Source: Pachysolen tannophilus NRRL Y-2460 (taxonomy: Eukaryota). From it: a stretch of 64,000 bases of DNA. Positions 2,560 to 63,053 of this stretch are shown one piece after another. Where the stretch lies: positions 650,147-714,146 of the forward strand of contig KV454012.1 of NCBI GenBank assembly GCA_001661245.1, in the 5' to 3' direction. The position numbers were made by a program, and so were the translations under genes. A model generated the notes under the pieces. The model had not been told where the DNA came from, did not search any database, and saw only the letters and a list, made by a program, of their open reading frames with translations. Numbering within the stretch: the first letter of the stretch is position 1; each line of letters opens with the position of its first letter.

Positions 2560-4242
2560 ATGAGCATCCCAGAGGCTCACTATCCCGAATCCGAGTTAAA
2601 CAAGTTTCTTCAGATACATGAACCAGAAGATAAGAATTTGAAGGCATCAGCTGTAGCGAAACCTCAATCACATTTGGCTGATATTCGTACTGGTGGAGTT
2701 AATGATGATTCCGACTATGGTATTGACTCACTGGATATGGAACCAATCAGGGTTAAAGTAACGAAAAAATTGAAAAACACACTGTCTTCATCTTCACAAG
2801 TGGTTAGAATTCAGAAACAGAAACAGGATCAAAAGGCGAAATTTAGGCGTCATATAAGCGAATCTAGATGGACTATTAGAAATTGGTATTGTCATCTTCA
2901 TTGGAAGAACATTTTCTTGAATATAATATTACCTTGTTATGGTGTGATTATACCTCTTTTATCATATGTTTTTGGATTTAAATTAATCAATTTTTGCAAA
3001 GATTATTTAACAATTTTCCTGATAAACTATTTTGTGACATGTTTATCGATAAATATAATATATCATCGGTATTATTCTCATAAATCTTTTAAAATTGATT
3101 CAATTTTTTTCAAATTTTTTCTTTTACTTGTTGCCACTTCTGGAGGTGTTGGTAATGCTAAATGGTGGTGTTTGAGTCATAGAGCTCATCATAGATTTTG
3201 TGATACGGAGAGAGATCCATCTAATGTAAGAAAAGGTTTTTGGTATAGTCATTTGGGTTGGATAGTATTAGTTCATCATCCAAAGATTCAAAAAGCAATG
3301 CAAGAATTAGAGTATGAAGATTTGAATAATGACTATTTAATAAAATGGCAACATGAAAACTATTTTAGATTATTTCTAGTATTTGGTTTAATTTTACCAA
3401 TAATAATATTGAAACAGTTTTTCCTAGTACATGAATCTATTCTTGGAATAAGTGTTGTATTTGTGAGTTGGAAAGTTTTCTTGGTACAACAAACTTTTTC
3501 TAATATCAATTCTTTATGCCATTGCAAAATTAGAGGAATAGGATCAACTCAACCATTTGATAATAGAAAGACTCCTAAAAACAATTTTTTATTTAATCTT
3601 ATAACTTTTGGTGAAGGTAATCATAATTTCCATCACGAATTTCCTTCAGATTATAGGAATGGAACACAATGGTATGATCTTGATCCGACAAAATGGGTTT
3701 TAAAAATTTTTTCTTTATTCAAAATTGTTTCGGATTTGAAAAAAACAAGCAAAACATCTATCGATCAATTATTAATTCAACAACAACAAAAAATTATAGA
3801 TTTGAAAAGATCACAGCTTAATTGGGGGATTCCAATTGATAGATTACCTAAAATCACACCAGAACAGTTTAAAAAAATTCTTGAAGGTAATGGAAATAGT
3901 CGACTGTTAGTTGTTGTTTCTGGGATAATCCATGATGTAACTCCTTTTATTAATGACCATCCAGGTGGTGTTGTCTTGATAAAATCCTCTATTGGCAAAG
4001 ACGCTACAAGCGCGTTCAACGGTGCAGTGTATCTGCATTCGAATGCGGCACATAATTTATTGGCAACTATGAGAATAGCAGTATTGAAAGGAGTAGATAG
4101 TGAGCAGATTGTATGGAAGCAACAACAGATGGAAAATAAGGATATTCCATTGAAAAATGATAGCGAAGGAAAAAAAATTGTAAGGAGTGGAGAACAGGTC
4201 ACTTTGATAAAGGCGCACTCGACCACTGCTGGTGCTGCCTAG
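2560..4242 (+). CDS. Delta-9-type acyl-CoA desaturase with C-terminal cytochrome b5 domain (divergent, OLE2-like)
   Basis: His boxes HRYYSH, HRAHH and HNFHH; FPSDYRNG..WYD.DPTKW; b5 motif HPGG...HSNAAHNLL. First in-frame ATG is at 2560. Confidence 0.85.
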   Translation: MSIPEAHYPESELNKFLQIHEPEDKNLKASAVAKPQSHLADIRTGGVNDDSDYGIDSLDMEPIRVKVTKKLKNTLSSSSQVVRIQKQKQDQKAKFRRHISESRWTIRNWYCHLHWKNIFLNIILPCYGVIIPLLSYVFGFKLINFCKDYLTIFLINYFVTCLSINIIYHRYYSHKSFKIDSIFFKFFLLLVATSGGVGNAKWWCLSHRAHHRFCDTERDPSNVRKGFWYSHLGWIVLVHHPKIQKAMQELEYEDLNNDYLIKWQHENYFRLFLVFGLILPIIILKQFFLVHESILGISVVFVSWKVFLVQQTFSNINSLCHCKIRGIGSTQPFDNRKTPKNNFLFNLITFGEGNHNFHHEFPSDYRNGTQWYDLDPTKWVLKIFSLFKIVSDLKKTSKTSIDQLLIQQQQKIIDLKRSQLNWGIPIDRLPKITPEQFKKILEGNGNSRLLVVVSGIIHDVTPFINDHPGGVVLIKSSIGKDATSAFNGAVYLHSNAAHNLLATMRIAVLKGVDSEQIVWKQQQMENKDIPLKNDSEGKKIVRSGEQVTLIKAHSTTAGAA

Positions 4243-4520
4243 TAGAAAGAACGAAAAATGGTTTCGCTTATATATATATATATTTAGTAACTTATATATT
4301 TATTTATATTTATTTAATTGGTTTTAAAGTTACAAATGTAAAAACTTTTATTTTTTCTTTTGATTGACTCTGAATTACCTTGAAATTCAAAAGCTGAATA
4401 AGTTTTCTTGAAGTTTTGAAAAAAGAAATAAAGTCTAAATGGAATTGGCAATTTTACATATGTGTTTGTTTTATCTGTTTTCAATGAAGCATAAAAAATA
4501 CAAATTGTTTTCTATATAAA

Positions 4521-6008
4521 TCAATTTTCTAATGACTCTTCGAATTCCTCGATTCTGTCTGTTCTTGCGTCAACATCTTTACTATCAAGTGGGATTCCAC
4601 CGCTGACGCTAAATTGACCTCCTGCACCTATGATTAATATATCATGATCTCTAGTGGCTGTATTGTCAATTCTTTTTGGTTTTTCAATATCGTCCTCACA
4701 ATTACCTAAACCTACAGCATAAGTATCGGCAAAACCCCAAGAAAATACATAACCATCATTCGTGACAGCTAATGAATGATGTGATCCAGCAGCAATGGCT
4801 TTAGCTTTAGGTAATGTTGTTAATTTAGTAGGAACAGGTAAAGATCTAATTTTTCCATGTGCATCCTTATATGCGCCATCTAATTTTGATAATTCTTCTA
4901 AAGAAATACCAATTTCCTTCATGTCGTATCTTCCAAAAGTATAGACATCACCATCTTTAGACAAAGCAATGGAATGATGTTCCCCACCAGTGATGCTTAC
5001 AATCCCTTTACCTGCCAACTCCTTAATTTCCATAGGCTTTGAAACAACTGCACCATCCTCAATATCGATTTCTATACCACATTGACCATATTGATTAAGA
5101 CCCCATGATAAAACTCTTTCATCAGTAGTTATAGCAAAAGCATGGAATTCACCACTTCCAATAGCTTTAATATTTTTTAAACCAAATTCTCTTGGAACTA
5201 ATGATTTCAATCTAGTTCTTTCCAAGATTCTACGACCTAATTGATATTGTTGACCGTTACCCCACGCAAAAACAACACCTTTAGTATTAAGACCCAAAAT
5301 ATGGTCTTTACCTGCAGCCAATTGAGTGATGTTTTCAAACTCTGGAATTTTCATTGGTGTTTTTTGAATCAAAATATCATCCATAAAACCCAAGAGACCT
5401 TCATTGCATCTAAAAGTACCCCAAGCATAAACATCTCCATTCGACATCAAGCACGCTGATAAATTATCAGTAGCTGCCACTCTTACAATTGTCAAATCTT
5501 TTGGCAATCCTTCAACTGGAGCCGGGGTAGATTCAAGAACGTTCAAATCACCATCATCATCATCACTATCAGACGCATCAATATCTTTTAATTTTTCAGC
5601 ACCTTCTTTGTTCGTATCTCTACCTAAAACACCACTATCATTACCACCCCAAGACCAGATTTGATTATTCTTGTCCAAAGCCAAAGTATGCATACCACCA
5701 ACGGCAAAATCAACAATACCAACTTTATCCTTAGGTAACAATGTATTTAATCTTGGTCTTTTAACTTCTTTTGTGTTTGCAGCTGGTCCTAAACCTAATT
5801 CACACATTGAACCAGTTCCCCAAACAAAAATATCTAATGGCTTACTATTTGGCTCCGAAGGAATCTTATTAATATCCGGAAGATGTGAAAGCTTCTGAGT
5901 AGCAAAACTTAATCTCGACTTTGATCTCTTAGCTCTCGAACTTGTAGATCTTTTCGGAGCTGACCCATTGCTATCAGGTGCCAGACGCTTTCTAACTAAT
6001 GCAACCAT
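4521..6008 (-). CDS. SRM1: RCC1 / Ran guanine nucleotide exchange factor
   Basis: RCC1 repeats, WGTGSMCELGLG, AVGGMHTLALD and a basic N-terminal NLS. Confidence 0.95.
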   Translation of the reverse strand: MVALVRKRLAPDSNGSAPKRSTSSRAKRSKSRLSFATQKLSHLPDINKIPSEPNSKPLDIFVWGTGSMCELGLGPAANTKEVKRPRLNTLLPKDKVGIVDFAVGGMHTLALDKNNQIWSWGGNDSGVLGRDTNKEGAEKLKDIDASDSDDDDGDLNVLESTPAPVEGLPKDLTIVRVAATDNLSACLMSNGDVYAWGTFRCNEGLLGFMDDILIQKTPMKIPEFENITQLAAGKDHILGLNTKGVVFAWGNGQQYQLGRRILERTRLKSLVPREFGLKNIKAIGSGEFHAFAITTDERVLSWGLNQYGQCGIEIDIEDGAVVSKPMEIKELAGKGIVSITGGEHHSIALSKDGDVYTFGRYDMKEIGISLEELSKLDGAYKDAHGKIRSLPVPTKLTTLPKAKAIAAGSHHSLAVTNDGYVFSWGFADTYAVGLGNCEDDIEKPKRIDNTATRDHDILIIGAGGQFSVSGGIPLDSKDVDARTDRIEEFEESLEN

Positions 6009-6230
6009 ATTCTCAAGAAATTGCTATACTCTGCTCAAACTTCTTTCTTAAAACTCTGATAAGTACCACAACACCAATATCTACTTAGTCAAGGAGATTG
6101 GAAGCAATTATTTGTTTAAATGTTTCAAATGATTCAAATGTTTTAAATGAGCTTCAATATCTTCAATCTTCTTTGAATGAAAATTACATCAAAATTCAAA
6201 ATATGTTTATTGCCAGATTCGGTGGTTCAC

Positions 6231-6324
6231 CAAAGACACCACTCACACCACACCCTACACCACTCACACTACTTACACACCACTTGCACCATTGACACCA
6301 TTAACACCATTGATACCATTAATA
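6231..6324. repeat. CA-rich degenerate tandem repeat
   Basis: CACCACTCACAC occurs twice, followed by about four (A/G)CACCATT-type units. Confidence 0.7.
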
Positions 6325-14213: not shown

Positions 14214-15995
14214 ATGTCGGTTTCAGCATCAAAGGCTAAGAGAGAAGCAAAAAGAGTTGCTCAAGGTAAAAAAACTAAGAAGACCAAGAATGAGGTTGAA
14301 GAAGCAGCTGAAGAAATTGCAAATTTGAAATTACAACAGGATAAGCATGGTATATCTGATAGGGTTACTACTGGTGTTTTAGATTCTTTGGAAACTTCTA
14401 GGGATATTAAATTATCTTCTGTATCGTTATTGTTTCATGGTAAAGTTTTGATTCAAGATTCTACTTTAGAATTAAATTATGGAAGACGTTATGGTTTATT
14501 AGGTGAGAATGGGTGTGGTAAATCCACTTTATTAAATGCTATTGCAGCAAGAGAATTCCCAATCCCGGCGAATATAGATATTTACTTGTTGAATGAACCA
14601 GCAGAACCAACTGAATATTCAGCATTAGAATATGTTGTTAGAGAAGCTGAACATGAATTACTGAGATTAGAAAAACAAGTTGAAGATATAATTGTTGAAG
14701 ATGGTCCTGAATCATTACTTTTAGATCCTTTATATGAAAGAATTGATTCTCTTGATCCTTCAACTTTTGAATCTAGAGCAGCTGTTATCTTGACTGGTTT
14801 AGGTTTTAACCCAAAAACAATTCAAAAAAAGACAAAAGATATGTCTGGTGGTTGGAGAATGCGTGTTGCTCTTTCAAAAGCTTTATTTGTTAAACCAACC
14901 TTATTATTATTGGATGATCCAACTGCTCATTTAGATTTGGAAGCATGTGTTTGGTTGGAAGAATACTTAAAAAGATTTGATCGTACATTAGTTCTTGTTT
15001 CTCATTCTATGGATTTCTTAAATGGTGTATGTACAAACATGATTGATATGAGATTACAAAAAATTGCAATGTATGGTGGTAATTATGATTCTTATATTAA
15101 GACAAGATCAGAATTAGAAACAAATCAAATGAAACAATATCAAAAACAACAAGATGAAATTCAACATATAAAAAAATTTATTGCATCTGCAGGTACTTAT
15201 GCTAATTTAGTTAGACAAGCAAAATCAAGACAAAAAATTTTAGATAAAATGGAAGCTGATGGTTTAATTCAACCAGTAGTTCCAGATAGAGTTTTCTCTT
15301 TTAGATTTGCAGATGTTGAAAAATTACCACCACCAGTTTTATCATTTGATGATATTTCATTTTCTTATGATGGTAATCCAGAAAATAATTTATATGAAAA
15401 TTTGTCATTTGGTGTTGATATGGATTCAAGAATTGCATTGGTTGGTCCAAATGGTGTTGGAAAATCAACTTTATTAAAAATTATGACTGGTCAATTACAA
15501 CCACAAAGTGGTAGAGTCTCAAAACATACACATATCAAAATGGGTGTTTACTCACAACATTCTGCAGATCAATTAGATTTAACAAAAACTCCATTAGAGT
15601 TTGTTCGTGATAAATTCTCAAGCATTTCTCAAGATTTCCAATATTGGAGACAACAATTAGGAAGATATGGTTTAACTGGTGAAGGTCAAACAGCGCAAAT
15701 GGCCACTCTTTCCGAAGGTCAACGTTCAAGAGTTGTTTTCGCTTTATTGGCATTAGAAAGTCCTAATATTTTACTTTTAGATGAACCTACAAACGGTTTA
15801 GATATCCCAACCATTGATTCTTTAGCTGATGCCATTAACGCCTTCAGCGGTGGTGTTGTTGTTGTTTCACATGATTTCCGTCTTTTAGATAAAATTGCCA
15901 AAGACATCTTTGTCGTTGAAAACAAAACCGCTACAAGATGGGATGGTAGTATCTCACAATATAAGCAAAAATTGGCAAAGAATGTTGTTTTATGA
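14214..15995 (+). CDS. ARB1: ABCF-family ATPase Arb1
   Basis: Two ABC domains (GENGCGKST, GPNGVGKST), no TM segments, and FIASAGTYANLV. ATG at 14214. Confidence 0.95.
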   Translation: MSVSASKAKREAKRVAQGKKTKKTKNEVEEAAEEIANLKLQQDKHGISDRVTTGVLDSLETSRDIKLSSVSLLFHGKVLIQDSTLELNYGRRYGLLGENGCGKSTLLNAIAAREFPIPANIDIYLLNEPAEPTEYSALEYVVREAEHELLRLEKQVEDIIVEDGPESLLLDPLYERIDSLDPSTFESRAAVILTGLGFNPKTIQKKTKDMSGGWRMRVALSKALFVKPTLLLLDDPTAHLDLEACVWLEEYLKRFDRTLVLVSHSMDFLNGVCTNMIDMRLQKIAMYGGNYDSYIKTRSELETNQMKQYQKQQDEIQHIKKFIASAGTYANLVRQAKSRQKILDKMEADGLIQPVVPDRVFSFRFADVEKLPPPVLSFDDISFSYDGNPENNLYENLSFGVDMDSRIALVGPNGVGKSTLLKIMTGQLQPQSGRVSKHTHIKMGVYSQHSADQLDLTKTPLEFVRDKFSSISQDFQYWRQQLGRYGLTGEGQTAQMATLSEGQRSRVVFALLALESPNILLLDEPTNGLDIPTIDSLADAINAFSGGVVVVSHDFRLLDKIAKDIFVVENKTATRWDGSISQYKQKLAKNVVL

Positions 15996-16380: not shown

Positions 16381-17036
16381 ATGGAGTCTTATGAGGTATG
16401 ATATGTTTTTAAAAAAAGGGGATAGATTTTTATTAAAATTTCAATTTAAATTCTAACGATTATTTGTAGTTAATTGATAGTGACCCATCGTTTAATCGTG
16501 TTGTCAGATATATGAGATTTTCGGATTATGCTTCTTGGATTCTGGGGACAGCAGGTGCACCAGGATTGCTTCTTCTTTTTGAAAAACTTGAGCCATTAGA
16601 GGGTAAGACTTTTAAAATGCCACTGGCATCATTATTAAGAGTTTCTACTACTGTGGGGTTTATTGGTGGATTTCTTTATGCTTATTCTTCTTCAACAAAA
16701 AGATTTTGGGGATGGACTGAGAATTCAAAAGAAGTTAGCAAAGATCGTTATGAAGTTAAGAAACTGCTTTCTGCAAAACAATCTCCTTGGGGGAAATCAA
16801 GATTATCACCTTATCAACAAGATATGAGTAGTAAGAATTCTCAAAATTCTCAATTGTTATTATCAATTTTCCCATGGTTTAACTTTACTAGTCATCAAAA
16901 TCATGGTATTGATTTAAGAAAATATTACGAGGTTAGACAAGGTGAAGAGAAATGGGGATTTGAATTACCACCTTTAGAAGAAGTTAATGACTTAGCTGTT
17001 GGAAACCAATTTAAAGTTTACACCAATTATCCATAA
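16381..17036 (+). CDS. Complex I accessory subunit NUXM (21 kDa); exons 16381-16395 and 16470-17036
   Basis: Intron 16396-16469 (GTATGA...TTCTAAC...TAG). Splicing gives MESYE|LIDSDPSFNRVVRYMRFSDY. Family motifs RFWGWTEN and PWFNF..H.NHG are present. Confidence 0.85.
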
Positions 17037-17108: not shown

Positions 17109-17201
17109 TCTTTATTTATTTTATTTAGCAATACTACTACAATTGATCTCGGTAACCCAACTAAAGAATTTATTAATTAATAATCCATCTGTAATGAGTT
17201 G

Positions 17202-17259
<58 letters not shown>

Positions 17260-19937: not shown

Positions 19938-20591
19938 TTAATAGATTCTGAAAGCTGGACCCATGGTAGATTTAATAACCAAGGAACCAACATTTTGCCA
20001 GTTTTTCTTTAATAAAGAGACTAAAAAGTTTGAAGACATTAAAACTTGGTTAACCAAGATATCTTCTTCCATCTCAACGTTACCAACAGCAACAGCTAAA
20101 CATAAAACTTTTTTCAATTGGAACTTGATGGTAGATTTAACATCGTTAACTTTTTGGTATAAATCATCATTATGAGAAACTGGAGTTGGGAATTTACCAG
20201 CTTTTGATAATTGAGGACCTAATAATCTTGGAACTTGCTTGATTAAAACATCAGAAGCAACAAAAGCATTATATTTCTTTGCCAATTTCTTAATCAATTT
20301 CTTGTTCTTGTTTAATTTTTTCAAATCTTCAACTGACATAGCATCAATACCTAATGATTTAGCTCTATCAACATCAAAAGCATCACCAAAGATACAAATA
20401 GTCATGTTTGGTCTTGGAACTTGAGGTAATTTTAAAGTACCAGAGAAACGCTTATCTCTTTGAGGATCATAATTCTTTAAACCAACTTGTAATTCAACAG
20501 TTTCTAAAAAGTTTCTCTTCTTAGTTTCAGAAGAGTACTTTAATAACTCTTGAACGTTTTCACGAACAGTACTGGTAGCTAACTTGGACAT
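19938..20591 (-). CDS. RPL1: 60S ribosomal protein L1 (uL1)
   Basis: [28 protein letters not shown]; 217 aa; strong codon bias. Confidence 0.98.
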
Positions 20592-40264: not shown

Positions 40265-40288
40265 ATGCAGATGAGTATGGGTAAGGGC

Positions 40289-40352
<64 letters not shown>

Positions 40353-41392: not shown

Positions 41393-41416
41393 ATGCAGAT
41401 GAGTATGGGTAAGGGC

Positions 41417-41480
<64 letters not shown>

Positions 41481-44268: not shown

Positions 44269-45846
44269 ATGACAAGTGCTGTTCAACCGTCACTGGAGTC
44301 TTTGTTTGAGACTATCAGCAAAGATAGATTGACTTATGAGGATAATGAGTTACCAAACTTGTATCCAATTTACTCTTATGTTTCCTCAGATTATCTTACA
44401 CCTCATTTGGCATACTTAAAGTTAACAAGACCGGGAGATCCGTTGCACAAGAAGACTCCAAATTTTTTATTTGAAAGTGCAAAGAATGGAGATACTTTGG
44501 ATAGATATTCTTTTATAGGTTTTAATCCAAAAAAAATCATTAAAACTGGTCCTACTGAAGGTGAAAATATGAATGTTGACCCGTTGTTACTTTTAGAACA
44601 AGAATTAAAAGATGTCAGACAAGCTCAGCTTCCTGCAATTCCAAGATTAAGTGGAGGTGCCATTGGATATATTTCATATGATTGTATTAAATATTTTGAA
44701 CCAAGGACAGCAAGAGATTTAAAAGATGTATTGAAATTACCAGAAGCTGCATTGATGTTATTTGATTTAATAGTAGCGTTTGATCATGTTTTCCAAAGAT
44801 TTCAAATCATAAACAATATTCAAATAAATCCTCAAGATTCAAAACAAGAAATAATTATTAAACATTTAAATGCTTCAAAAGAAATAGAAAATATTAAAAA
44901 AACTTTAACTGATACTGATTCATCTATTCCATATCCTCCACAACCAGAAATTAAACAAAATCAAACTTTTACTTCGAATATTGGACAAGAAGGTTATGAA
45001 AACCATGTCAAATTTTTAAAAGAACATATCATGTGTGGTGATATTTTTCAAGCAGTTCCTTCTCAAAGAATAGCAAGACCTACGTCATTACATCCTTTTA
45101 ATATATATCGCCGCTTAAGAACTGTGAACCCATCACCTTATCTTTTCTATATAGACTATCTTGACTTCCAAATCGTTGGAGCTTCTCCTGAACTTTTGGT
45201 CAAGACAGATCTGAATAACAAAGTCATTACACATCCTATTGCTGGTACATTACCTAGAGGTAAGACTAGAGAAGAAGATGATGCAAATGCAGTTAAATTA
45301 AAAGCTTCATTAAAAGATACCGCTGAACATGTTATGTTGGTTGATTTGGCAAGAAACGATATTAATAGAGTGTGTCAGCCTTCATCTACAAACGTGGATA
45401 GACTCTTATCTGTTGAAAGATTTTCACATGTCATGCACTTGGTCTCACAAGTTAGTGGAACTTTAAGAAAAGATAAAACTAGATTTGATGCCTTTAGATC
45501 AATTTTCCCCGCAGGAACTGTTTCCGGTGCACCAAAAATCAAAGCAATGGAATTAATCAGTGAGTTAGAAAAAGAAAAAAGAGGAGTTTACGCTGGAGCA
45601 GTTGGTCAATGGTCATATGATGGTAGAACCATGGATACATGTATCGCATTAAGAACAATGGTTGTTAAAAACGGTGTTACATATTTACAAGCTGGAGGTG
45701 GTATTGTCTATGATAGTGATCCTTACGATGAGTATGTGGAAACTATGAATAAGATGAAGGCCAATAATAATACGATTGTTGAAGCTGAACAAATTTGGAC
45801 GGAAAGATTGAAGGAAAATAGTTTTGATAGTCAAACTGAAGACTAA
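44269..45846 (+). CDS. TRP2: Anthranilate synthase component I
   Basis: NPSPY, THPIAGT, AEHVMLVDLARND and PAGTVSGAPK motifs. Confidence 0.97.
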   Translation: MTSAVQPSLESLFETISKDRLTYEDNELPNLYPIYSYVSSDYLTPHLAYLKLTRPGDPLHKKTPNFLFESAKNGDTLDRYSFIGFNPKKIIKTGPTEGENMNVDPLLLLEQELKDVRQAQLPAIPRLSGGAIGYISYDCIKYFEPRTARDLKDVLKLPEAALMLFDLIVAFDHVFQRFQIINNIQINPQDSKQEIIIKHLNASKEIENIKKTLTDTDSSIPYPPQPEIKQNQTFTSNIGQEGYENHVKFLKEHIMCGDIFQAVPSQRIARPTSLHPFNIYRRLRTVNPSPYLFYIDYLDFQIVGASPELLVKTDLNNKVITHPIAGTLPRGKTREEDDANAVKLKASLKDTAEHVMLVDLARNDINRVCQPSSTNVDRLLSVERFSHVMHLVSQVSGTLRKDKTRFDAFRSIFPAGTVSGAPKIKAMELISELEKEKRGVYAGAVGQWSYDGRTMDTCIALRTMVVKNGVTYLQAGGGIVYDSDPYDEYVETMNKMKANNNTIVEAEQIWTERLKENSFDSQTED

Positions 45847-47732: not shown

Positions 47733-48668
47733 ATGTTGGATTTGGATAAGATAATAGACGATGTTAAAAAATGCAATCATGTCCCGGAGAATGATATATT
47801 AGAATTATGTCTCTTGGTACAAGAGATATTAATCGAAGAACCAAATATCCAATTAATAGATACACCGATCACGGTATGTGGGGACATCCACGGTCAATTA
47901 CACGACTTGCTTACTTTATTTTCAATTGCTAAATATCCACCAGAGACGAAATATTTATTTTTAGGAGATTTTGTCGATAGAGGTTTTTATTCGTTAGAAA
48001 CTTTTCTTCTATTATTATGTTATAAGATACGATACCCAGATAGAGTTTTCTTGATTCGTGGGAATCACGAATCAAGACAAATTACAACTGTATATGGATT
48101 TTATGATGAATGTTTAAGAAAATATGGATCTGCAAATGTATGGCGATATTGTTGTGAAGTATTTGATTATCTTGCCTTAGGGGCATATATCACTAATGGC
48201 TCTTCAGGAGGTGATGGCGGTGTCTTTTGTGTTCATGGAGGCTTAAGCCCGGATATAACTTCAATAGATCAAATAAAATATATAGATAGAAAACAAGAAG
48301 TGCCCCATGAAGGTTCGATGTGCGATTTACTTTGGTCCGATCCTGAAGAAAATATCCCTCTGTGGGCAGTCTCACCAAGAGGCGCTGGTTTTTTATTTGG
48401 ACAAAACGAAACAGAAAGATTTTGTTATAAAAATAATTTAAACTTAATTGCACGCGCACATCAATTAGTTATGGAAGGTTATAAAGAAGTTTTTGATGGA
48501 AGCTTGGTTACAGTTTGGTCCGCACCAAACTATTGCTACCGTTGCGGTAATATTGCAGCTTGTCTCACTATAGATGACGATTATAACAGAACTTACCAAG
48601 TATTTGAAAGCGATGACTCCTCTATGGTGGTGCAGTCCAAAATATTACCAAACGATTATTTTTTATAG
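47733..48668 (+). CDS. PPH3: PP4 catalytic subunit
   Basis: PPP motifs, [23 protein letters not shown] and C-terminal DYFL. ATG at 47733. Confidence 0.85.
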
Positions 48669-48669
48669 C

Positions 48670-49504: not shown

Positions 49505-52273
49505 ATGACTGAAACAAGTACTTCATCAACCTCATCGGTTTTATCATCATTGGCATTGTATGGCGCTATATTTGGTGTTTTCTTGACTGGGTTCCTCTTG
49601 TTGAGAATTAAATTCAAGAGGATTTATCAACCAAAATCGTCGTTTGATTTGGTTGTTGCAGAAGAGAAACCAGAGCCTTTACCGCCAGGGTTGTTCTATT
49701 GGGTGATCAAGTTAATAAAAAAACCTGATTCTTTTATCATTCAACAAAGTGGTTTGGATGGATATTTTTTCATTCGATATATTGGACTTATTTCACTGAT
49801 TACTGGTGTAGGTTGTTTAATGTTGATTATTTTATTACCGGTTAACGCCACAAACGGTAATGGTGATTCTGGGTTTGATCAGTTGGCTATATCAAACGTA
49901 AAACATCCAAAGAGATTTTATGCACATGCATTACTTTCATGGTTTTATTATGGATTTCTAATCTATGTTATTTATAGAGAATTAGTTTTCTATAATTCCC
50001 TTAGATTAGCTGTTTTATCTTCTCCAAAATATGCAAAAAAACAATCGTCAAAAACGGTATTATTTCAAACTGTTAGTAGTCAATATTATAATATCAATGA
50101 ATTTTATAAATTGTTTGATGGTGTTAAACGTGTTTGGGCTGCTAAAGGACCGAAAGAATTGGCTGGAAAAGTTCTGATGAGAGATCAAATTGCTTATCAA
50201 TTAGAAAGGGCTATTACAAAAGTTCTTCGTAAAGCTGTTAAAGTACAGAAAAAGGCATCAAAGAAAGGAAGGTCAATTGAACCTGCAGATGATTTGGATG
50301 CTTATGTTCCTTATAAGAAAAGACCAACTTTCCGTAAGACAATACCAATATTTGGTAAAAAATTAAACACTATTGATTTTTGTAAAGAGAAATTACCTGA
50401 ATTAAACAAAGAAGTTGAAAATTTACAAAAAGATTATGCAGATGCAAGACCAATGAACTCTATATTTGTAGAGTTTGAAAGTCAATATGCTGCTCAATTA
50501 GCAGTTCAATCTTGTCCTTATCATGTTCCTTTCCATTTCTTGCCGCTGTATGTTGGTATTGAACCTGCTGATATTATTTGGCCAAATATGAGATTGTTTT
50601 GGTGGGAAAGATTAATAAGAAGTTCATTAGCCCTTGCTGCTGTACTTGCTCTTATTATCTTATGGGCATTCCCAGTTGCCTTTATCGGATTAGTTTCAAA
50701 TGTCCAATATTTAATTGAAAAACTTTCTTGGTTGGATTGGATCAATAACTTGCCATCTCAGTTATTAGGTATTATTACATCTATTTTCCCAACTGTTGTA
50801 TTGTCATTTTTCATGGGATTATTACCTCCATTTATGAGATTGATGGCAAAAATTGCTGGTGCTCCTTCAGTCCAAGATGTTGAATATAAGACTCAACAAA
50901 GTTATTTCATCTTCCAAGCAATACAGGTTTTCTTAGTTACTGCTCTTGCATCTTCTGCAACGTCGGCAGTTGAGGAAATCATTGATAAACCTTCAAATGC
51001 AATGAAGTTATTAGCATCAGATTTACCTAAATCTTCAAATTTTTATATTTCATATATCATATTACAAGGTTTAGCAGTATCTGCAGGTGCGTTGTTCCAA
51101 ATTGATACTCTATGTTTATTTTATATCTTGGGTCATATCTTGGATAATACCATTAGAAAAAAATATGAAAGATTTACGGGTATATCTATGTATGGTTGGG
51201 GTACAGTTTTTCCAATTTATACCAACTTGACTATTGTTATTTTAACATATTCAGTTATTTCTCCATTGATTTTACCATTTGCTACTGTTGGGTTTGCTTT
51301 GTTATATATTGCTTTCTTACATAATACCACATATGTTTTTGGACAAACTCCAGATGCAAGAGGTCAACATTACCCAAGGGCATTATTTCAAACATTTGTT
51401 GGTATTTATTTGGGAGAAGTTTGTTTATTAGGTATCTTTATTGTAGGAAAAGGATGGGGACCTATTGTCATTGAAGCAATTTTGATTTGCTTCACAGTTT
51501 ATTGTCATATCACAATTAATAATGCTTTTGATAGATTATTAAAAGTTGTCCCTGCAGATGTTATGAAACCTTTGGATGGATACTCAGAAACCCCATCATG
51601 TACTGCTGCTACTCCAGAAATGAGAAATGCTCATTTAAAGGCGGAATTCAAAGCAACTGCTTCCCATCTGTTTGTTTCATCAACAGATTCATCCGAAGCT
51701 GGTGATTCAAGAAACTCACAGGAGTCACAGATGTTTAAGGAAGATAAGCAAGAACAAAACATAACAACTTTCAACTATGTTACGAACAAACAAGAGACAA
51801 ATCCAGAAGTTCCATTATTAGCGGATGGAGATGAATTCTTGATTCCTGATGCGATTATTAAGAAAAACCACTTTGTATCGAGATTCTTTGCTCCACATAT
51901 ATATTTATCCTATCATGTTGCCAAAAGAATGCTTCCAGCATCATATTATGAAGAGCCAGATGCTTTAGATCCTGAGACGGAGAAACATGCATATGATTAT
52001 CCTGATGTGACTGCACAGGCACCTGTCTTATGGATACCTAGAGATCCGATGGGATTTTCAACCAAATTTATAAAAGAGTTTAAAGATATTATTCATATTT
52101 CAGACGAAGGTGCTGATTTTGATGAAAAAGGCCGTATGAGATGGTTAGGAGATGCTCCTCCAGCGTATACTGAGGACAGTAATGGTGAAAGTGGTTCCTC
52201 GGATAGCGGAAAGGAATCCTATGGAAAGGAAGATACAGGAAAAGATGAATATGATTCAATGGAAAAGAAATGA
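49505..52273 (+). CDS. RSN1: OSCA/TMEM63-family calcium-permeable channel
   Basis: GLDGYFF.RY, LLPVNATNGN and YPRALFQTFVGIYL motifs. Directly upstream of PPA2, as RSN1 is in S. cerevisiae; PHM7-type paralogy is not excluded. Confidence 0.75.
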   Translation: MTETSTSSTSSVLSSLALYGAIFGVFLTGFLLLRIKFKRIYQPKSSFDLVVAEEKPEPLPPGLFYWVIKLIKKPDSFIIQQSGLDGYFFIRYIGLISLITGVGCLMLIILLPVNATNGNGDSGFDQLAISNVKHPKRFYAHALLSWFYYGFLIYVIYRELVFYNSLRLAVLSSPKYAKKQSSKTVLFQTVSSQYYNINEFYKLFDGVKRVWAAKGPKELAGKVLMRDQIAYQLERAITKVLRKAVKVQKKASKKGRSIEPADDLDAYVPYKKRPTFRKTIPIFGKKLNTIDFCKEKLPELNKEVENLQKDYADARPMNSIFVEFESQYAAQLAVQSCPYHVPFHFLPLYVGIEPADIIWPNMRLFWWERLIRSSLALAAVLALIILWAFPVAFIGLVSNVQYLIEKLSWLDWINNLPSQLLGIITSIFPTVVLSFFMGLLPPFMRLMAKIAGAPSVQDVEYKTQQSYFIFQAIQVFLVTALASSATSAVEEIIDKPSNAMKLLASDLPKSSNFYISYIILQGLAVSAGALFQIDTLCLFYILGHILDNTIRKKYERFTGISMYGWGTVFPIYTNLTIVILTYSVISPLILPFATVGFALLYIAFLHNTTYVFGQTPDARGQHYPRALFQTFVGIYLGEVCLLGIFIVGKGWGPIVIEAILICFTVYCHITINNAFDRLLKVVPADVMKPLDGYSETPSCTAATPEMRNAHLKAEFKATASHLFVSSTDSSEAGDSRNSQESQMFKEDKQEQNITTFNYVTNKQETNPEVPLLADGDEFLIPDAIIKKNHFVSRFFAPHIYLSYHVAKRMLPASYYEEPDALDPETEKHAYDYPDVTAQAPVLWIPRDPMGFSTKFIKEFKDIIHISDEGADFDEKGRMRWLGDAPPAYTEDSNGESGSSDSGKESYGKEDTGKDEYDSMEKK

Positions 52274-54014: not shown

Positions 54015-57000
54015 ATGGGTGAATCTAGTGAATCTAGTGTTAATTTAGGATATGATGATGATGGAAAAGAGCTTTCTCCATTAGAGCCAGAAGCATCATG
54101 GTAAGTTTATATGTTTTTTGATCTTTTTCTTATTCTTTTTCTTTTTTGAAACTGATTAAAGTTCATGAAGATACTAATACTCTTTTTTTTTTATTTGTTT
54201 GGGTTAATAGGACAATCGACCATGCCATATTATTACTTCAGGAGACGAGCAACCCAACTATGCTTTCTGCAGTGGGTAAGTTTTTAGTTATGAATAAGCC
54301 TATTTTAAATCAATCGTTACCGTTTAAATTGTCAAAAGAATTTAAAGACGAAGAAATTATGAATTTGAAAGAATTGTCTTTAAGGGGTATTAAATATTCG
54401 AACGTGACTGAACAAAATAAGAAAGATGCGATTAAAATTGCAAGATTATTTAAATTGGACCCTTTTGAGACGTTGAGAATTGTTTTACAGACATCTCAAA
54501 AGATTCCAGGAAAGATAATAGTAGAAGAAGCGACGGTGAAACTTTCAGCTAAGAAGGAAAAATCACTTTTACCTATTGATAAATCAACTTCTTATGAAGA
54601 CGAAAGAATTCAACTTCTTTCAGAAAAAATATTAAGAGAAAGAAGATTAGTTTTACAATTGATGTCATTGTTAATCCAAAATCAACACAATAATCTATTT
54701 CCTCAAACTGTGCGTTCAATAGGGTATGAAATTACAACAAATCCAAGCTTAATGGGAAATAGTATTGAAAGTTATGAAATATTAGTAGATTTTATAATGG
54801 AACAAAGCTATTTAACCAATGCTTCAAAACAATTGAATGATTTGAATATTAAAGAACATTATTTATTATTGATCGATTCGGCTAAGCTTCTAATAAATTT
54901 GATTTTAAATAAAACTCTTGAAAAAAAATTGCTGTTAAAATGGTTTCAAATCATGGCAAAGATAAATTTCATGTCAACTATGTCTAAAAAAATTCCACAA
55001 GATACATTGATAATAATAGAAGCTTTACTGACTATAATAACAGTGTTAGTACTCGATTTAGATAATGAGAAAACTGATTTGGAAGATGATGTATCTTTCA
55101 TCAATGACCCTAATATTTTCAATGAAATCAATACTATCCTTTCAAAGGCACCAACAAATCCAATAGTTTTGTATGCATGGAGTATTATACTTTATAGAAA
55201 ATCTTTGACAATTGAAGAATTTCCATCAAGCCTGCTGGTTAAGAATTTTGTCTCGCATTCTAAAAACTACTTGTCAAATTTAAAGCTTATTTTTAATACT
55301 TTTCTCACCAGGGCAAACGAATTGGATGTTTGTAATTCATTAATTAAGTGTTATAATATTTTAAAATTTGATCAATTATATACATTGATATTAGGTTCAT
55401 ATGTTTTATCCATGTTGCCATATGTTGTATTAACTCCAAAAATTGCTACTCTTATAGAAACTATCATAAGTGGGGCACCAAAGCATATTATCGAGAGATT
55501 TTTCAAAGATAAAGACACAAAATCGTTAATTTTAGTATTAAAATCAAAAATCCCATTGTCGTTTTTATCATATATCCCATTCTGTAATATCAACGGATAT
55601 TTTGCATTTAAAGATTTGTCATCACTAAAATCTTATATGGTGTCTTTTAATGAAGAACAATTAATTAATAAATATGTGTTTGATGAATCAAATCCAGAAT
55701 TTATTACACTCACTGAAAACATTGATGTTTTACCCCCTTATGAATCATCAGGAGAATTATCATTACTTTTGAAGCCAGGAACAAGAGGAAAATTTATATC
55801 TATTTCGAGTGAAAAAGAACAATTCGTGTCTTTCATATATGAATATAATGGTTTGTCCTTAATTGGTAGAATATTACAAAATATTTGCAAAAATTTTGAT
55901 GTTGAAAATGAAGAAAAAACTTCACTAGCAGTCTATATTTTGAACTTACTATCAAATATATTTCTGGTATGTTCTAAGAGTGATCAAGAAGAAGCTTTAA
56001 GAGTTACGAGTGCCTTTGTTGATGGCAATGACATTATCAAAGTCGTTTGTGATATATATAGTAGAGCTTTGATTGAGAGACACATCAAAATATTGGTTGC
56101 TGGAAATAAGTTGTTTAATTCCTTAACTCGAAATTTTTCTGAAAAAGTCTGGACTTCTTTAAAAACTTCTGTCCTTTTAGAAAATAAATCCAGAGGAGAG
56201 TATTATGCAATAATTTTAGGATCGGTAGAAATGGTGCATGGTAATTATGATTTTACTATATCGTTACTTGAATTAATTGATAACTTGATAAACAGCTGCT
56301 TTTCTATTACTGAAAAATATATAATGACTGAAAGACAAGAAATTTTGAAGAAGTTTACAATCTTTTTGATCCAGATTTTTGAAGGCTTTATTTCTTGGAG
56401 ATATAATCACAAATATCAGAAAATGCAAATAGGTACTCTTGTCAGTGATTTGTTTTCCAATATATTAGTTTCATTCTATGGTATGGGCAAACCCGAACTG
56501 AAATCTGAACAAAGAGTAAAAACAACCAAAGTGCTAGAAGGATCCGCCTCAAAAATTATTGATGCATTTTTGATTTCGAATTCTAATGATGTTAGATCAA
56601 ATAAACCAATAATTTCAATGATTGAGTCACTATCAGTTGCTTTGTCGACTTTTCTGACAAGTGATTATACATCAATGTGGTACAAAAACTGGATAAAAAG
56701 CTCATTTAACCTTTCTACTTTGTTGATTTCTGCTAGGTCTATGTTAGGTTTAAAACCATCCACTTTTGAGAGATCCATATTTAGCAAATCATCGACATTA
56801 ATTTCTGTTTATGCTCAATTCGTACAATTAAGGATTAACATTATTAATTTATTAACTAGTTTAGTTAGTGCCAAATGGCCAAACGAGCCTCCTTCATTAT
56901 TAGCGCATTTGGGCGATTATTACTCAAATGTGTTATTACGGTCATTAGCAACAGATTTAAATAATACATTCGATGACTATGAAATCAAAATTAGAATTTA

Positions 57001-59077
57001 CGATTTTTTCTCTGCTGTTATGGAAGGAAACCAAGAAGGCTTATCAATAATGTTCATAACGGGGCGTGATATTCGTGAATCAATATTACACGAATCACCA
57101 GTCACTGATGGTAAACTGTTATCAATACTAAACATTTTGAAAAAAAATGTTTCAAGTATTTATAAGTTTCCGGATTATGTGAGTATACATCTTGTTGTTG
57201 CCATTTCACTTGCTTTCAATTCCTGGACTACAGCTAAGGAAGGAGGAAACGATAAAGAATTTATCAACGAGTTGATCAAAAGGATACAAAGGAGACCTCA
57301 GTTCAAAACATTGAAACCTTATACGTCAGAAGACTACGTTAATATCTCGTATGAATATAAACTTATTTCCAAGATAGCAGAAATTCTAGCCTTATATTTA
57401 TTTGTTTCCAAAGACGAAGAGTGCAGTAAAAATATTGAAAATTTGTTAACAGATGAGAAATTTATGAAAAGTATCGAAAGTATTTTTAAGATTACAGGGT
57501 ACAAGCCTTCATTACATAGTGATTTACGCAATGCCTTCAAAAGAAAATGGCCCGAGTTCAAATTACTGGGATTTATCAGGTCACCCTTGGTTAAAACCAA
57601 AACGTACGGTGTTGATTCGATTTATGATTTAGCAATCATGGACAAAGTTTTTAAAGATGAAAGTGATTGGGAAGGGTATAAAGAAGATATTTTCTCATCA
57701 AGTATCAACTTGAAATATGTTGAGAGTCAAATTGCTGCAGCTAAATCTTTAGGTGCTTTGTTGACATCATATTGTAACAAGGTGAAAACCCCTTTGAATC
57801 CAATATATTTGAAATTAGTTTCAAAATTGTTGGAATTGAATAATGAAGAAAGTATTACAGCTCCTGTTTTCAAAGATATTTATCGTGAACGCATTGAATT
57901 GTCATTTTTCATAATATATACAGTTTTAAAAAATAACGGAGAAATCAATGATGATCCGACACTGTATGAAATCATTGAGAATTGTTCAAATACTTTGGTC
58001 TCCAATGATTTGGACTTAATAACAGGGTTGTCAGATGTAAATATTTTCTACTATAGACCGTTGTTACGAACTTTATTAACGGCATTAAAAATGGCTAAAA
58101 ATGATGAGCATTTACTAGAAGAACATTCGGAAACTTTTGTAAGTCTATTTAATTTGGTTATTTCCAAAAGTTCGAGGTTTCTATTTTCTTCCATTCAGAA
58201 CGAAGCATTGTCAAGTAATCAAAAAGAATTTGCAGATTCAAAAATTATTAATCAAAGATTAGAAGATGTTTTTTTAATTTTGTCGATTTTGAAAGTAATG
58301 ACCAGGCTAAAATTTTCAAAAGCTGTACATTTGAAATTTGCATCAAGTCTTGTTGAAAATGGAAGCATAAAAACAATCTTCAACTTATATTCATGCTCTC
58401 ATATAATCAAAATAAATAATGAACCGGTTTTTGCTGAATTGACATTATCGTTTATATACGAGCTTGTTTCTATTCGGCCTATTGCTGAAAGACTAATTTC
58501 CAATGGGTTGTTTTCTATTTTGGTCGAAAGTCCAATATCTATTATTATTCAAAAAGGTGGAATTAGGCCAAGTGCGTCATTGACTTACCATAGGATATGG
58601 AACAATGGTCTTTTGTCAATTTTGCTAACGTTATTGAGCACATTTGGAGAAAGAGTCCTTCCAGAAATAGTTATGTTTTTGATTTATTTTTCAAATCAAT
58701 TGACTACAAGCATTAACGCTTGGTTCCAGGATTCAATTATCATTAGCAGTGCAGTTATTCAGGAAACCAATCAATTCGTTTTGTTGTATAAGGTTTTGCA
58801 AGCTTTGAACGTTGAAAACTATCTTCTGAGTTCTAATACGAATACAGGTGCGGTAGGAGCAAGTGAAATCCAATTTATACCAGGACTAGATACAAAGGAG
58901 CAAAGACAGGAATTAGTTAATGTTTTTAACTATTTGCTCTCGCATCCAAAGTTTTTATCAATGAGGGTTAGTCCAATTACTCCAGAAGAAGAAATATCTT
59001 ATGAAAGAGATAATAAGAAGTTTATTGAAAATATTGTAAGCGACATTCGTGAATTGAGAGATTCACTAATATATTAG
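54015..59077 (+). CDS. NUP188: Nucleoporin Nup188; exons 54015-54100 and 54211-59077
   Basis: Intron 54101-54210 (GTAAGT...TACTAAT...TAG) gives ...EASW-TIDHA in frame. PSLLAHLG, FFSAVMEGNQEGL and HRIWNNGLL motifs. Near MDM1, as in S. cerevisiae. Confidence 0.88.
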
Positions 59078-59195: not shown

Positions 59196-62100
59196 TTACT
59201 TTTTGTTGAGAAACATTTTCCTGAAATCGGCGTTTGTCTTCTCTTTCATATCCGTGTTTCTGTTACCATCGTTGTCTTTCGCGATAATGTGATTATTACC
59301 ATTTTCAGTTGAAGCATGGATATTGAACTTCATGCGACGATTACGTCTATTGAGCGCTGAAGGCACCATTAAGCTATCATTTTTCTTATTAAAAGTAGTT
59401 TTTTCGGTATTGTAAATATTCTGAATTTTATTTAATTCCTTTCTATCTCCTATTTTTATTACTCTCCCATCCAACTCCTTACCGGTCAAAAGCATCTCTG
59501 CCTTTCCCGCATCCTTGATAAATTCGAACTCTACTAGAGCGCCGTCGATGTCCCGTCTCAAATCAATTCTTCTGACACTGCCAACTTGAGATTCCAAAAA
59601 ATCCTTCAATTGTAGGGCACTAATCTTATCTGAAATATTTAAAACACTTATTGTTTTCGGACCTATCAAATCATATTGAGTATTAGTCAATGAAACCGAG
59701 TCATGAGATTCTATGATATCTCTTTTCTTCGATTTTACCTCAGCTATAGAAACATCAATTGGTCGTCCTTCTAATATCGAATGGTTCAATTCTAATGAAT
59801 CTTGAGCTGATTTTTTGGTTGCGAAAGTTATGAAACCATAACCGTCATGCAATCTTCCCATGCTTTTACTTCTCAAACTTAAAGGCATATGAATTTTCTC
59901 AATTTCCCCAAATCTACTGAAAATCTCTGATAGCTTATTTTTATCAACTTTGTGGAAATCTAATTTAGAAACATAGACCTCTCTTCCTTCCTCAGTGGCA
60001 CCCGATCTTTGCTTTCTAATTTCAGGGTTTGAGATCTTAACTACAAGTCTGTAAGACGTATTGCCAGTTTTGTCTTTAAACTCTTTATCGTCAAGTTCCT
60101 TTGATGCACGATAAGCTGCCTCTGATGAGGAAAATTCAACATAGCAAAACCTTCTGGACGTATTAGACAGTAATGAAGGAAACCTAATGCTTAAGACATT
60201 ACCAAATTTTGAGAAAACATCTGAAATAAATTCTTTGTTTGCAGTCGGAGGAAAATTAGTGACCCAGCAAGTCGTATTTATTGCACGCTGGACTTCAATT
60301 TCTTTACCATCAATCTTTTTGAAGTTTTTAGTTAATGCAGCCAACACATCACCATAATTAGTGAACTCAATACTTGCCTCGCTTGAATCATCATTGGTTT
60401 TGATAATAGATATATTGAAAATAGTTCCGCAGTCTTTGAAAAAAGCCTGTAACCTTGCCTGCGTTATATCTAAGGGCAAATTCTTGACCAAAACAGTCAA
60501 ATGTTCACGGTCCCTGGTTGGTTTTGTTTCTATCTTTATCTTTTTGTTAGCCGGTACCGTATTTGACGAAGGGCCTGATTCAATAGATCTCTTATTATTA
60601 TTATTATTATTATTATTATCGTGCTTTAATTCCTGCAAAATGGTCTGCTCTTGTTCTTCAATTCTCTTGTTATTAACTTCTTTCATCGACTTTTTGACAT
60701 AATTCTCAGCAGACATATATGCGGCCATCGAACCAAATATTTCTTCATATCTTATGTATTCATCAAAAATTCTCTCAGGCCAATCCATATTCACCGCATT
60801 AAAAATAGCCTCTTTGAAAACCTTACTTACTTGAGTTGCATTCTCTAATTTTTGTTCATATTGAATTCTTAATAGCCAAACTTCTGCTTGTTGCTTAAGT
60901 ATTTCATTTGAAGTTAACAATTTCAACAATTGAAGACACATCTTATTTTCTTGAATTATATCACACAGCTGAATTACTAACCTTTCAATAGTGTGATAAA
61001 CATCGTCAGAATGGTTTTCAACAGCTAGAGTAAAAAAATAGTTCAAGTCATCTTTGAAATCCAGATAAATTGCTTTATTTTGCAGATAAAATTTCAATTG
61101 CCAACGTATGATGGCACCTATTAGCTTTTTTGTATTATCATATGGTACTTCATGATTAAAACATTCACGATAATTTTTCAATATATGAGTTTTTGCATCA
61201 TTAAATTCATCTAGTTCATTAATTTCAAGATCCCATATATAAGCACACCAGCTTAAGCAACTATTTGGATAGGTTCGCACAAATCTTTTTAAAAACTTTC
61301 TTATAGAAATTGATCCATATTCATAAGAAAGATTTATAAAATCTTGCCAAACTGGAATCCAATTTGTATCATCAAATCGATTTCTTACTGCTCTTTCAAA
61401 AATTCCTGTCAAAATAGGTAATTTCTTGAAACTCTTGTTCCCTTTCAATTTCAAATATTCTGTCCAAAATAAAGGATCATCTTTATATTCTTTTTGTAAA
61501 GCTTTAATTTCATTTGACTCTATAAAATCAAGCAATTTTTTTGTTGGTGTATAATAAAATTTTTGTGCATTTAACATTTCCGATTCATAAACTTTATTAA
61601 AATGTGATGAAATAAAAGATGAATATAAACTCCAAGTTTCTTGTAGTTTTAAATGAGGTACTTTTAATCTTTCAATTATGATTTTTTTAACAAAATCTAA
61701 ATTGTACGGTTTTTTGTTCATATTGTTCAAAATGAACTGATAATAAGCATTCCATACAAGATGACTCTCTGGAATATCATACATTGTTTCGGTAACACCT
61801 TTCTCTATCAGTACTTGTAACTCATCTCTAGAAATAAACAGCTCAGATTGTTCATGATATGATATTAAAAAATCAATATAATTTTTCCATAACAGAGATG
61901 ATGATGGGTCATCATTTAACCGAAGTTCAAAATACTGCTTAACCCCACAAAACCTGTCTTTTAAATCTTTGTTCCCCAACTCATCATCATACCACTCATC
62001 CCATTCTTCCAGCAAGGGTACCAAATACTTGAGCATTGAAATCCTACAAGATCGCAACTCTTTGAACATCTTATTTTTTTGTAAACGCAAACATGATATC

Positions 62101-62240
62101 AACTTTGAATACGCATCTCTATTATACGGATCTGCTTCCACCTCCAGATAAAGTTCATCCATATCTTTTGAAACATCCTTCTCTATACACATTGAAACAC
62201 CTATACTCTTCTCATCTTTGCCCAATTCCAATTCTGACAT
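59196..62240 (-). CDS. PRP24: U6 snRNP recycling factor Prp24, long SART3-like form (HAT repeats + 4 RRMs)
   Basis: RDREHLTVLV, RFPSL..NTSRRFCY and the C-terminal Lsm-binding motif TNADFRKMFL. Confidence 0.93.
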   Translation of the reverse strand: MSELELGKDEKSIGVSMCIEKDVSKDMDELYLEVEADPYNRDAYSKLISCLRLQKNKMFKELRSCRISMLKYLVPLLEEWDEWYDDELGNKDLKDRFCGVKQYFELRLNDDPSSSLLWKNYIDFLISYHEQSELFISRDELQVLIEKGVTETMYDIPESHLVWNAYYQFILNNMNKKPYNLDFVKKIIIERLKVPHLKLQETWSLYSSFISSHFNKVYESEMLNAQKFYYTPTKKLLDFIESNEIKALQKEYKDDPLFWTEYLKLKGNKSFKKLPILTGIFERAVRNRFDDTNWIPVWQDFINLSYEYGSISIRKFLKRFVRTYPNSCLSWCAYIWDLEINELDEFNDAKTHILKNYRECFNHEVPYDNTKKLIGAIIRWQLKFYLQNKAIYLDFKDDLNYFFTLAVENHSDDVYHTIERLVIQLCDIIQENKMCLQLLKLLTSNEILKQQAEVWLLRIQYEQKLENATQVSKVFKEAIFNAVNMDWPERIFDEYIRYEEIFGSMAAYMSAENYVKKSMKEVNNKRIEEQEQTILQELKHDNNNNNNNNKRSIESGPSSNTVPANKKIKIETKPTRDREHLTVLVKNLPLDITQARLQAFFKDCGTIFNISIIKTNDDSSEASIEFTNYGDVLAALTKNFKKIDGKEIEVQRAINTTCWVTNFPPTANKEFISDVFSKFGNVLSIRFPSLLSNTSRRFCYVEFSSSEAAYRASKELDDKEFKDKTGNTSYRLVVKISNPEIRKQRSGATEEGREVYVSKLDFHKVDKNKLSEIFSRFGEIEKIHMPLSLRSKSMGRLHDGYGFITFATKKSAQDSLELNHSILEGRPIDVSIAEVKSKKRDIIESHDSVSLTNTQYDLIGPKTISVLNISDKISALQLKDFLESQVGSVRRIDLRRDIDGALVEFEFIKDAGKAEMLLTGKELDGRVIKIGDRKELNKIQNIYNTEKTTFNKKNDSLMVPSALNRRNRRMKFNIHASTENGNNHIIAKDNDGNRNTDMKEKTNADFRKMFLNKK

Positions 62241-62303
62241 CCCTGATTACAGGAAATAAACTGAGAACCAGATTGATTAATACTTTATATTATTAAAAAA
62301 TAC

Positions 62304-62346
62304 CTCATCATCTTTCTTTCAAGTCGTGTGTTGAAATTTTTTTTCA
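62304..62346. promoter_or_regulatory. PAC core (CTCATC) plus RRPE-like element in the PRP24/TMA23 divergent promoter
   Basis: CTCATC at 62304-62309 and TGAAATTTTTTTTCA at 62332-62346. Confidence 0.55.
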
Positions 62347-62423
62347 AACTAATTTTAAAGGAAAATTTTTTAAAAGACCAGATCAAAGGTAAAAGTTGAT
62401 TTAAAAGTTGGTGTTGAGGCAGT

Positions 62424-63053
62424 ATGAATTCCAGTGATTATCTTAAGTCTTATGGCTGGAAAGAGGGAGAACCTTTGAGAAGAGGTGGTTTGAAAAGACC
62501 TATTTTGGTGAAGCACAAGAAGGATACAAAAGGCTTGGGACATGATAGTGGTGATAGTGAAGCATGGTGGGAGAGAGTATTTGATGGACTGTTGAAAGGA
62601 TTAGATGTTATGGGTAATGCTGCGGATGGGATAACGTTTAAACAAAATGAAATAAAGGCCAGTGCGGTGACGAAGAGTCAGTCGCCGTTGTATAAGATGT
62701 TTGTGAAAGGTGAAGGTTTGGTTGGTACTATTGGAAAGACTAGTCACGTGCAGGTGGAACAGATAAAAGTTAATGATATTGAAGAAGTCATTGAGAATTC
62801 TACAAAAATATCGTTTGATTCTCATGGAGGGGTGAAACCGATAAAAGGAAAGAAACTGAAAAGTGGGAAAACTCGAAAAACTGGGAAAACTGGGAAAAGT
62901 GAGAAGAAGGAAGACAAAAAGAAGAAGAAGAAGAAGAAAGAAAAGAAAGAAAAGAAAAGTAGAGATGAGTCTAAAAGTAAAAACAAAAAACGAAAATCTT
63001 CAAATAGTGATGATGATATTTCCAGGAAAAGGACTAAAAAATCGATAAAATGA
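62424..63053 (+). CDS. TMA23: G-patch nucleolar protein Tma23
   Basis: YLKSYGWKEGE...KGLGH, WWERVFDG and a Lys-rich tail. Divergent from PRP24. Confidence 0.9.
   Translation: MNSSDYLKSYGWKEGEPLRRGGLKRPILVKHKKDTKGLGHDSGDSEAWWERVFDGLLKGLDVMGNAADGITFKQNEIKASAVTKSQSPLYKMFVKGEGLVGTIGKTSHVQVEQIKVNDIEEVIENSTKISFDSHGGVKPIKGKKLKSGKTRKTGKTGKSEKKEDKKKKKKKKEKKEKKSRDESKSKNKKRKSSNSDDDISRKRTKKSIK

Follow-up and report, generated by a model that had tools for sequence, protein, structure and literature searches.

Which amino acid does CTG specify in the budding-yeast genes of a 64,000-nucleotide stretch of contig KV454012.1 (positions 650,147 to 714,146; hereafter the window)? An earlier note, written from the bare sequence, had proposed alanine. 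We regard it as nearly certain that this stretch is nuclear DNA of Pachysolen tannophilus, which uses NCBI genetic code 26 and an alanine-type tRNA(CAG), and that its CTG codons are read as alanine. The support for alanine comes from protein identity and from the literature, and not from contextual arguments or from the alignment columns of the window's own genes. We infer the alanine reading of each individual CTG in the window.

Identity to public Pachysolen proteins

We compared four window proteins with public proteins under the standard code (NCBI table 1), the serine-type code (table 12) and the P. tannophilus code (table 26). For the Nup188 open reading frame (ORF), 24 relatives were found (E values up to 1e-10). 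The best of them, P0001, is named a hypothetical protein of P. tannophilus NRRL Y-2460 and is 99% identical to the window ORF under table 1, followed by P0002 (50%), Candida arabinofermentans (39%), Ogataea (36-37%) and Wickerhamomyces ciferrii (37%). The table 26 translation of the ORF lies within P0001 without any difference. With table 1 or 12 the two differ at 11 residues; these are the 11 CTG codons of the ORF, and P0001 has alanine at each. For the Prp24/SART3-like protein (hereafter Prp24), only the table 26 translation contains P0025 without a difference, starting at ORF residue 17; tables 1 and 12 mismatch it at nine of nine CTG codons and nowhere else. Likewise, P0175 is an exact substring of the Ole1-type desaturase ORF from residue 98, and P0295 is identical to the Rsn1 ORF, both under table 26, and neither ORF has an exact match under table 1 or 12.

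Because all four proteins match exactly under table 26, the window is P. tannophilus DNA whose public annotation already takes CTG as alanine. Judged by the four genes compared, it appears to be nuclear DNA indistinguishable from that of strain NRRL Y-2460. The same matches place it in the alanine clade, which is reported to consist of Pachysolen, Nakazawaea and Peterozyma (Krassowski et al. 2018, PMC5951914). The nearest relatives with a name are of the Pichiaceae type (Candida arabinofermentans, Ogataea, Komagataella and Kuraishia).

After the proteins of the strain itself, the nearest relatives were P0002 for Nup188 and P0296 for Rsn1 (about 57%), and the two genes may be neighbours there, as they are in the window. 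P0002 has leucine at three of the ten Pachysolen CTG sites that can be aligned; these leucines could be CTG codons if its organism is an alanine-clade yeast translated with the standard code. The N-terminus of P0001 extends 45 residues beyond the longest ATG-started Nup188 ORF of the window (54125-54259), so that the annotated start would lie upstream or in another exon.

Published record on CUG in Pachysolen

Two reports of the reassignment date from 2016, the second of which is said to be that of Riley et al. in PNAS. The other showed, in the same strain as the public proteins and by mass spectrometry and tRNA identity, that CUG is read as alanine (Mühlhausen et al. 2016, PMC4937558), so the earlier note was right to call this code established for P. 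tannophilus. The second report is cited in the study of the clade (PMC5951914). As described in the mass spectrometry paper, the strain's tRNA(CAG) clusters with alanine tRNAs and has the G3:U70 pair and discriminator A73, without the long variable arm of the leucine and serine type. Among 907 CUG positions with full fragment-ion support, 97.2% were alanine, and the remaining 2.8% comprised eight ambiguous positions and 18 with another residue. The rate of deviation at CUG was no higher than at AUG, and the authors conclude that the two codons are equally unambiguous. They count 16,824 CUG codons in 5288 predicted genes, or 3.2 per gene (PMC4937558).

In 2014, a comparative study based on 26 proteins had put Pachysolen in the serine code (PMC4986446). 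In the account given there, Pachysolen is without CUG at highly conserved leucine or serine positions and has no CUG position in common with other species. The assignment was later reversed by the same authors, for the same strain, on the basis of mass spectrometry and tRNA analysis (PMC4937558).

CTG frequency in the window

There are 32 ORFs that start with ATG and span 150 amino acids or more; together they hold 95 CTG in 16,776 codons (5.66 per 1000). One of them (17121-17954, minus strand) is mostly a run of 604 N at 17260-17863 and is not a gene. The desaturase ORF begins 97 codons before P0175 does, and this extra part (2560-2850) includes two of the five CTG of the ORF (2731 and 2782), which are probably not coding. 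With the first ORF removed and the second trimmed to the start of the public protein, 31 ORFs remain, with 16,401 codons and 93 CTG. This corresponds to 3.0 CTG per ORF, against the 3.2 per gene published for the genome. At least one CTG is present in 27 of the 31, so that the code changes most of the translations supplied with the earlier note, as the note had said.

The earlier note had also called CTG rare. This is true in absolute terms, but not relative to base composition: positional base frequencies lead one to expect 80.3 CTG, and 93 are present (ratio 1.16). Under the same model CTA (0.35), CTC (0.60) and GCG (0.34) fall below expectation. Since CTG is not under-represented against composition, its rarity is not in itself a sign of reassignment, and these counts agree with a standard code in which CTG is a rare leucine codon of an AT-rich genome. 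The leucine codons of RPL1 are, as had been noted, restricted to TTA (21) and TTG (6), with no CTN codon.

CTG sites in orthologue alignments

The alignment of CTG codons with their orthologues, which the earlier note had proposed, was carried out for the four families. We placed an X at each CTG and used 21 Nup188 homologues, 149 Prp24 representatives, 119 desaturases and 119 Rsn1 proteins. The alignments exclude the public proteins of the window itself (P0001, P0025, P0175 and P0295) and the two weakest Nup188 matches (P0023 and P0024). The four ORFs contain 29 CTG codons, of which 25 fall in columns that are at least half occupied; 24 are left without desaturase residue 75, which lies upstream of the public start.

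Leucine is firmly rejected by these columns. Its mean weighted frequency is 0.09 at the 24 CTG sites, compared with 0.40 at CTT, 0.49 at CTA, 0.56 at CTC, 0.53 at TTA and 0.46 at TTG (Mann-Whitney p=3e-8). The other rare leucine codons thus keep leucine-rich columns. We also scored the columns of each codon against empirical amino-acid profiles, once with unmatched profiles and once with profiles matched for column entropy. The unmatched likelihood calls the standard residue for every one of the 54 other codons that have 10 or more sites. For CTG, leucine ranks 13th of 20 amino acids in the unmatched version and 11th in the matched version. Bin-matched controls (490-498 of 500 recovered) were drawn from the sites on which the profiles were trained and therefore overstate the power of the test.

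The CTG codons lie at variable positions. None of the 24 sites falls in the most conserved quartile of columns, where six are expected (0.75^24 = 0.001), compared with 65 of 186 TTA sites and 20 of 71 GCT sites. Several CTG sites are in columns of valine, isoleucine and leucine, and several in columns of lysine, glutamate, aspartate and serine. For instance, desaturase residue 154 corresponds to V in 49, F in 30 and I in 21 of the 119 proteins, and Rsn1 residue 224 to K in 38 and R in 23. Alanine is the commonest residue at two sites only, desaturase 449 (A 53, G 27 and Y 17 of 119) and Rsn1 348 (A 54 of 119). A few columns have leucine as the commonest residue: desaturase 492 (L 27, N 25, Q 19 and D 18 of 119), Rsn1 98 (L 31 and A 22 of 119) and Nup188 1235 (L 8 and I 8 of 21).

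The earlier note had quoted nine CTG codons as standing at positions that are not leucine in homologues. All nine are present in frame at the coordinates marked in Table 1, and a comparison with homologues was possible for six of them. The statement holds for desaturase 449, the sole compared example in which alanine is commonest, for Prp24 691 (K in 86 of 148), for Arb1 150, which aligns to K of Saccharomyces cerevisiae Arb1 (chain 6r84_A), and for Pph3 210, which aligns to G of the human PP2A catalytic subunit. At desaturase 492, leucine is the commonest residue. Trp2 315 lies at a variable spot that is poorly aligned or unaligned against solved TrpE-family chains, and Sec27 729 is past the alignable part, as the alignments stop at residues 671-683. 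Pairwise alignments to PDB chains (Pph3, Trp2, Arb1, NUXM and Sec27) gave nine further site comparisons, made by eye and with redundant top matches; the residues are scattered, with no consistent one. Two other CTG sites of Sec27 correspond to G in yeast and K in mammal (residue 494) and to T and a gap (residue 665). In NUXM, the chains 9iho_O, 7zm7_X and 6gcs_X have L, A and L at site 11, P, F and S at site 38, and A, R and R at site 85.

Low-complexity contexts were also considered as a means of separating alanine from serine, and were dropped because both readings give plausible runs; they were the acidic tail of Sec27 and a triple CTG in Flc. The latter is part of the disordered C-terminal tail of the protein: three successive CTG occupy 37360-37368 (minus strand), and another follows four codons downstream.

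Weighing the readings of CTG

Several observations weigh against alanine. The alanines of the public proteins reflect only how the depositors translated them. No tRNA gene was found in the window by ARAGORN and Rfam scans, so that the tRNA(CAG) is not among the evidence that the window offers. The mean alanine frequency in the CTG columns, 0.09, is far below the 0.35-0.46 of GCN codons (Mann-Whitney p=3e-6). The unmatched likelihood over 25 CTG sites puts five residues ahead of alanine (S -75.4, K -76.6, T -76.8, N -76.8, V -77.9, A -78.1, L -86.3) and picks it in 22 of 2000 bootstraps, against 891 for serine. In the entropy-matched version valine is still ahead (V -67.1, A -68.5, T -69.8, I -70.4, S -70.7, L -73.8). 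In the nearest homologue, the 18 CTG sites with a residue include three L, two S and one A; this test is weak, since the closest Prp24 rows are short fragments with gaps at eight of its nine CTG sites. The columns of the window, dominated by neither leucine nor serine, do not single out alanine against serine, valine or threonine. Hence the argument of the earlier note that transmembrane helices and the R-A-L and Y-A-H contexts favour alanine over serine arrived at the right answer by a route that the columns do not bear out. Because the CTG codons look like newcomers to positions that tolerate change, these columns do not reveal the new amino acid.

That CTG is serine, as in the table 12 type codes of the Candida/Debaryomyces and Saccharomycopsis/Ascoidea clades, is scarcely conceivable. 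Serine heads the unmatched likelihood, is slightly more frequent than alanine in the CTG columns (0.11) and was the choice of the 2014 study (PMC4986446). However, this frequency is far below the 0.24-0.43 found at the six serine codons (Mann-Whitney p=1.5e-5), alanine leads serine by 2.2 log units with the entropy-matched profiles, and the Pichiaceae-type relatives named above are not of a serine clade. Table 12 also disagrees with the public Nup188 and Prp24 proteins at all of their CTG sites, and the serine assignment was refuted in print by the mass spectrometry, as reported by the authors who had made it (PMC4937558). The chance that CTG has kept its standard meaning, as a rare leucine codon shunning conserved sites, is practically nil. 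The codon count and the few columns led by leucine are in its favour; the columns of the other rare leucine codons, the low rank of leucine in both likelihoods and the published mass spectrometry (PMC4937558) contradict it.

Two further readings concern the purity of decoding. CTG could be mostly alanine with a meaningful share of another residue through a competing tRNA, as in Ascoidea asiatica. The 2.8% of well-supported CUG positions that are not purely alanine could be taken in this sense, and nothing in the window bears on it, but the unambiguous AUG codon deviates at a similar rate in the same data (PMC4937558), and we consider such mixed decoding extremely unlikely. The same 2.8% might, rather than noise, reflect real, context-dependent competition by a near-cognate leucine tRNA, with some codons, such as those in the leucine-rich columns of desaturase 492, Rsn1 98 and Nup188 1235, read partly as leucine. 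The published AUG control argues against this as well (PMC4937558), and we hold it to be very unlikely.

Alanine is thus the reading supported by the four exact matches under table 26 and by the published tRNA and mass spectrometry (PMC4937558). In everything tested, the window agrees with the P. tannophilus code, with exact proteins, CTG kept off conserved leucine positions and a similar number of CTG per gene, and no difference was found. The CUG-Ser1 code of Candida albicans and its relatives (table 12) is similar in that the same codon was lost from leucine, with CTG depleted at conserved leucine columns and arisen again elsewhere; it differs in that CTG is serine there, through a tRNA-Ser(CAG), and belongs to another clade. 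The CUG-Ser2 and stochastic decoding of Saccharomycopsis and Ascoidea is described as another independent CUG reassignment in budding yeasts (PMC5951914, PMC6041473). Serine and leucine tRNA(CAG) can coexist there, whereas Pachysolen is reported to have unambiguous alanine (PMC4937558).

Proposed origin of the CTG codons

According to the literature, the tRNA with the CAG anticodon is an alanine tRNA by descent and identity, charged with alanine. In the published model, the ancestral CUG-leucine codons would have been lost along with their tRNA, and new CTG codons would have arisen by mutation after the capture of the codon by the alanine tRNA. We suggest that these may have come from leucine, valine, methionine, proline, glutamine or arginine codons through single mutations. 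The presence of CTG only at variable positions fits this tRNA-loss model, and it fits the 2014 statement that Pachysolen is without CUG at highly conserved leucine and serine positions (PMC4986446).

Genes and other features of the window

The window is AT-rich (G+C about 30%) with two runs of N, and budding-yeast genes are packed densely across it. Pfam names Brl1, the Ole1-type desaturase, RCC1, His7, DAHP synthase, Arb1, the complex I 21-kDa/NUXM subunit, RPL1, an FtsJ methyltransferase, Sec27, an Arf GTPase, Bms1, a mannosyltransferase, a Pho80-type cyclin, Flc, Ppt1, Trp2, Rrn9, a Pph3-type phosphatase, Rsn1, inorganic pyrophosphatase, Nup188, the long Prp24/SART3-like protein and a sorting-nexin C-terminal domain. 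The features on which the analysis drew are listed in Table 1.

Table 1. Genes and CTG codons discussed in the text (window coordinates; "quoted" marks the nine codons cited by the earlier note)
Feature	Position	Strand	CTG codons	Basis or remark
Ole1-type acyl-CoA desaturase with cytochrome b5 domain	2851..4242	+		Pfam FA_desaturase, Cyt-b5
Desaturase CTG	3019	+	residue 154 of long ORF	
Desaturase CTG	3904	+	residue 449 of long ORF	quoted
Desaturase CTG	4033	+	residue 492 of long ORF	quoted
Arb1 CTG	14661..14663	+	residue 150	quoted
Complex I NUXM/21 kDa subunit	16512..17036	+	3 (residues 11, 38, 85)	Pfam
RPL1	19938..20591	-		
Sec27 CTG	22495..22497	-	residue 729 of ORF	quoted; acidic C-terminal tail
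Flc/TRP-like channel CTG	38845..38847	-	residue 264	quoted; Pfam TRP domain
Trp2 CTG	45211..45213	+	residue 315	quoted
Pph3-type phosphatase CTG	48360..48362	+	residue 210	quoted
Rsn1 (OSCA/TMEM63-like)	49505..52273	+	4 (residues 98, 224, 348, 722)	Pfam
Nup188	54260..59077	+	11	
Prp24/SART3-like protein	59196..62240	-	9, including the next row	
Prp24 CTG	60168..60170	-	residue 691	quoted
CTG in ORF 62424-63053	62589..62591	+		quoted; Tma23 according to the earlier note; the ORF has no Pfam match

Two of the ORFs start inside a domain. The Sec27 ORF (22468-24681, minus strand) aligns only from residue 123 of yeast Sec27, and the Arf ORF (25766-26224, plus strand) from position 33 of the Pfam profile; each gene probably has a short 5' exon and an intron. 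An exact direct repeat of 977 nucleotides occurs at 40116-41092 and 41244-42220, with a spacing of 1128 nucleotides. Its copies carry identical ORFs of 238 amino acids (40265-40981 and 41393-42109; 717 of 717 bases equal) with an asparagine-rich N-terminus and no Pfam match. Between the copies is a run of 138 N (41093-41230), and the repeat may be a real tandem duplicate or the duplicated flanks of an assembly gap.

Meaning of the result

The earlier note had reserved novelty for the case that the species lies outside the alanine clade. The window is of the P. tannophilus NRRL Y-2460 type, which is the type case itself; CUG as alanine is already known here, and nothing departs from the published picture. 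With regard to method, a small column test of this kind rejects leucine yet cannot name the new residue, because the CTG codons are all young and at variable sites, and the same limitation lies behind the 2014 call of Pachysolen as a serine decoder (PMC4986446). In practice, the window should be translated with table 26, since the standard code puts wrong leucines in most of its proteins.

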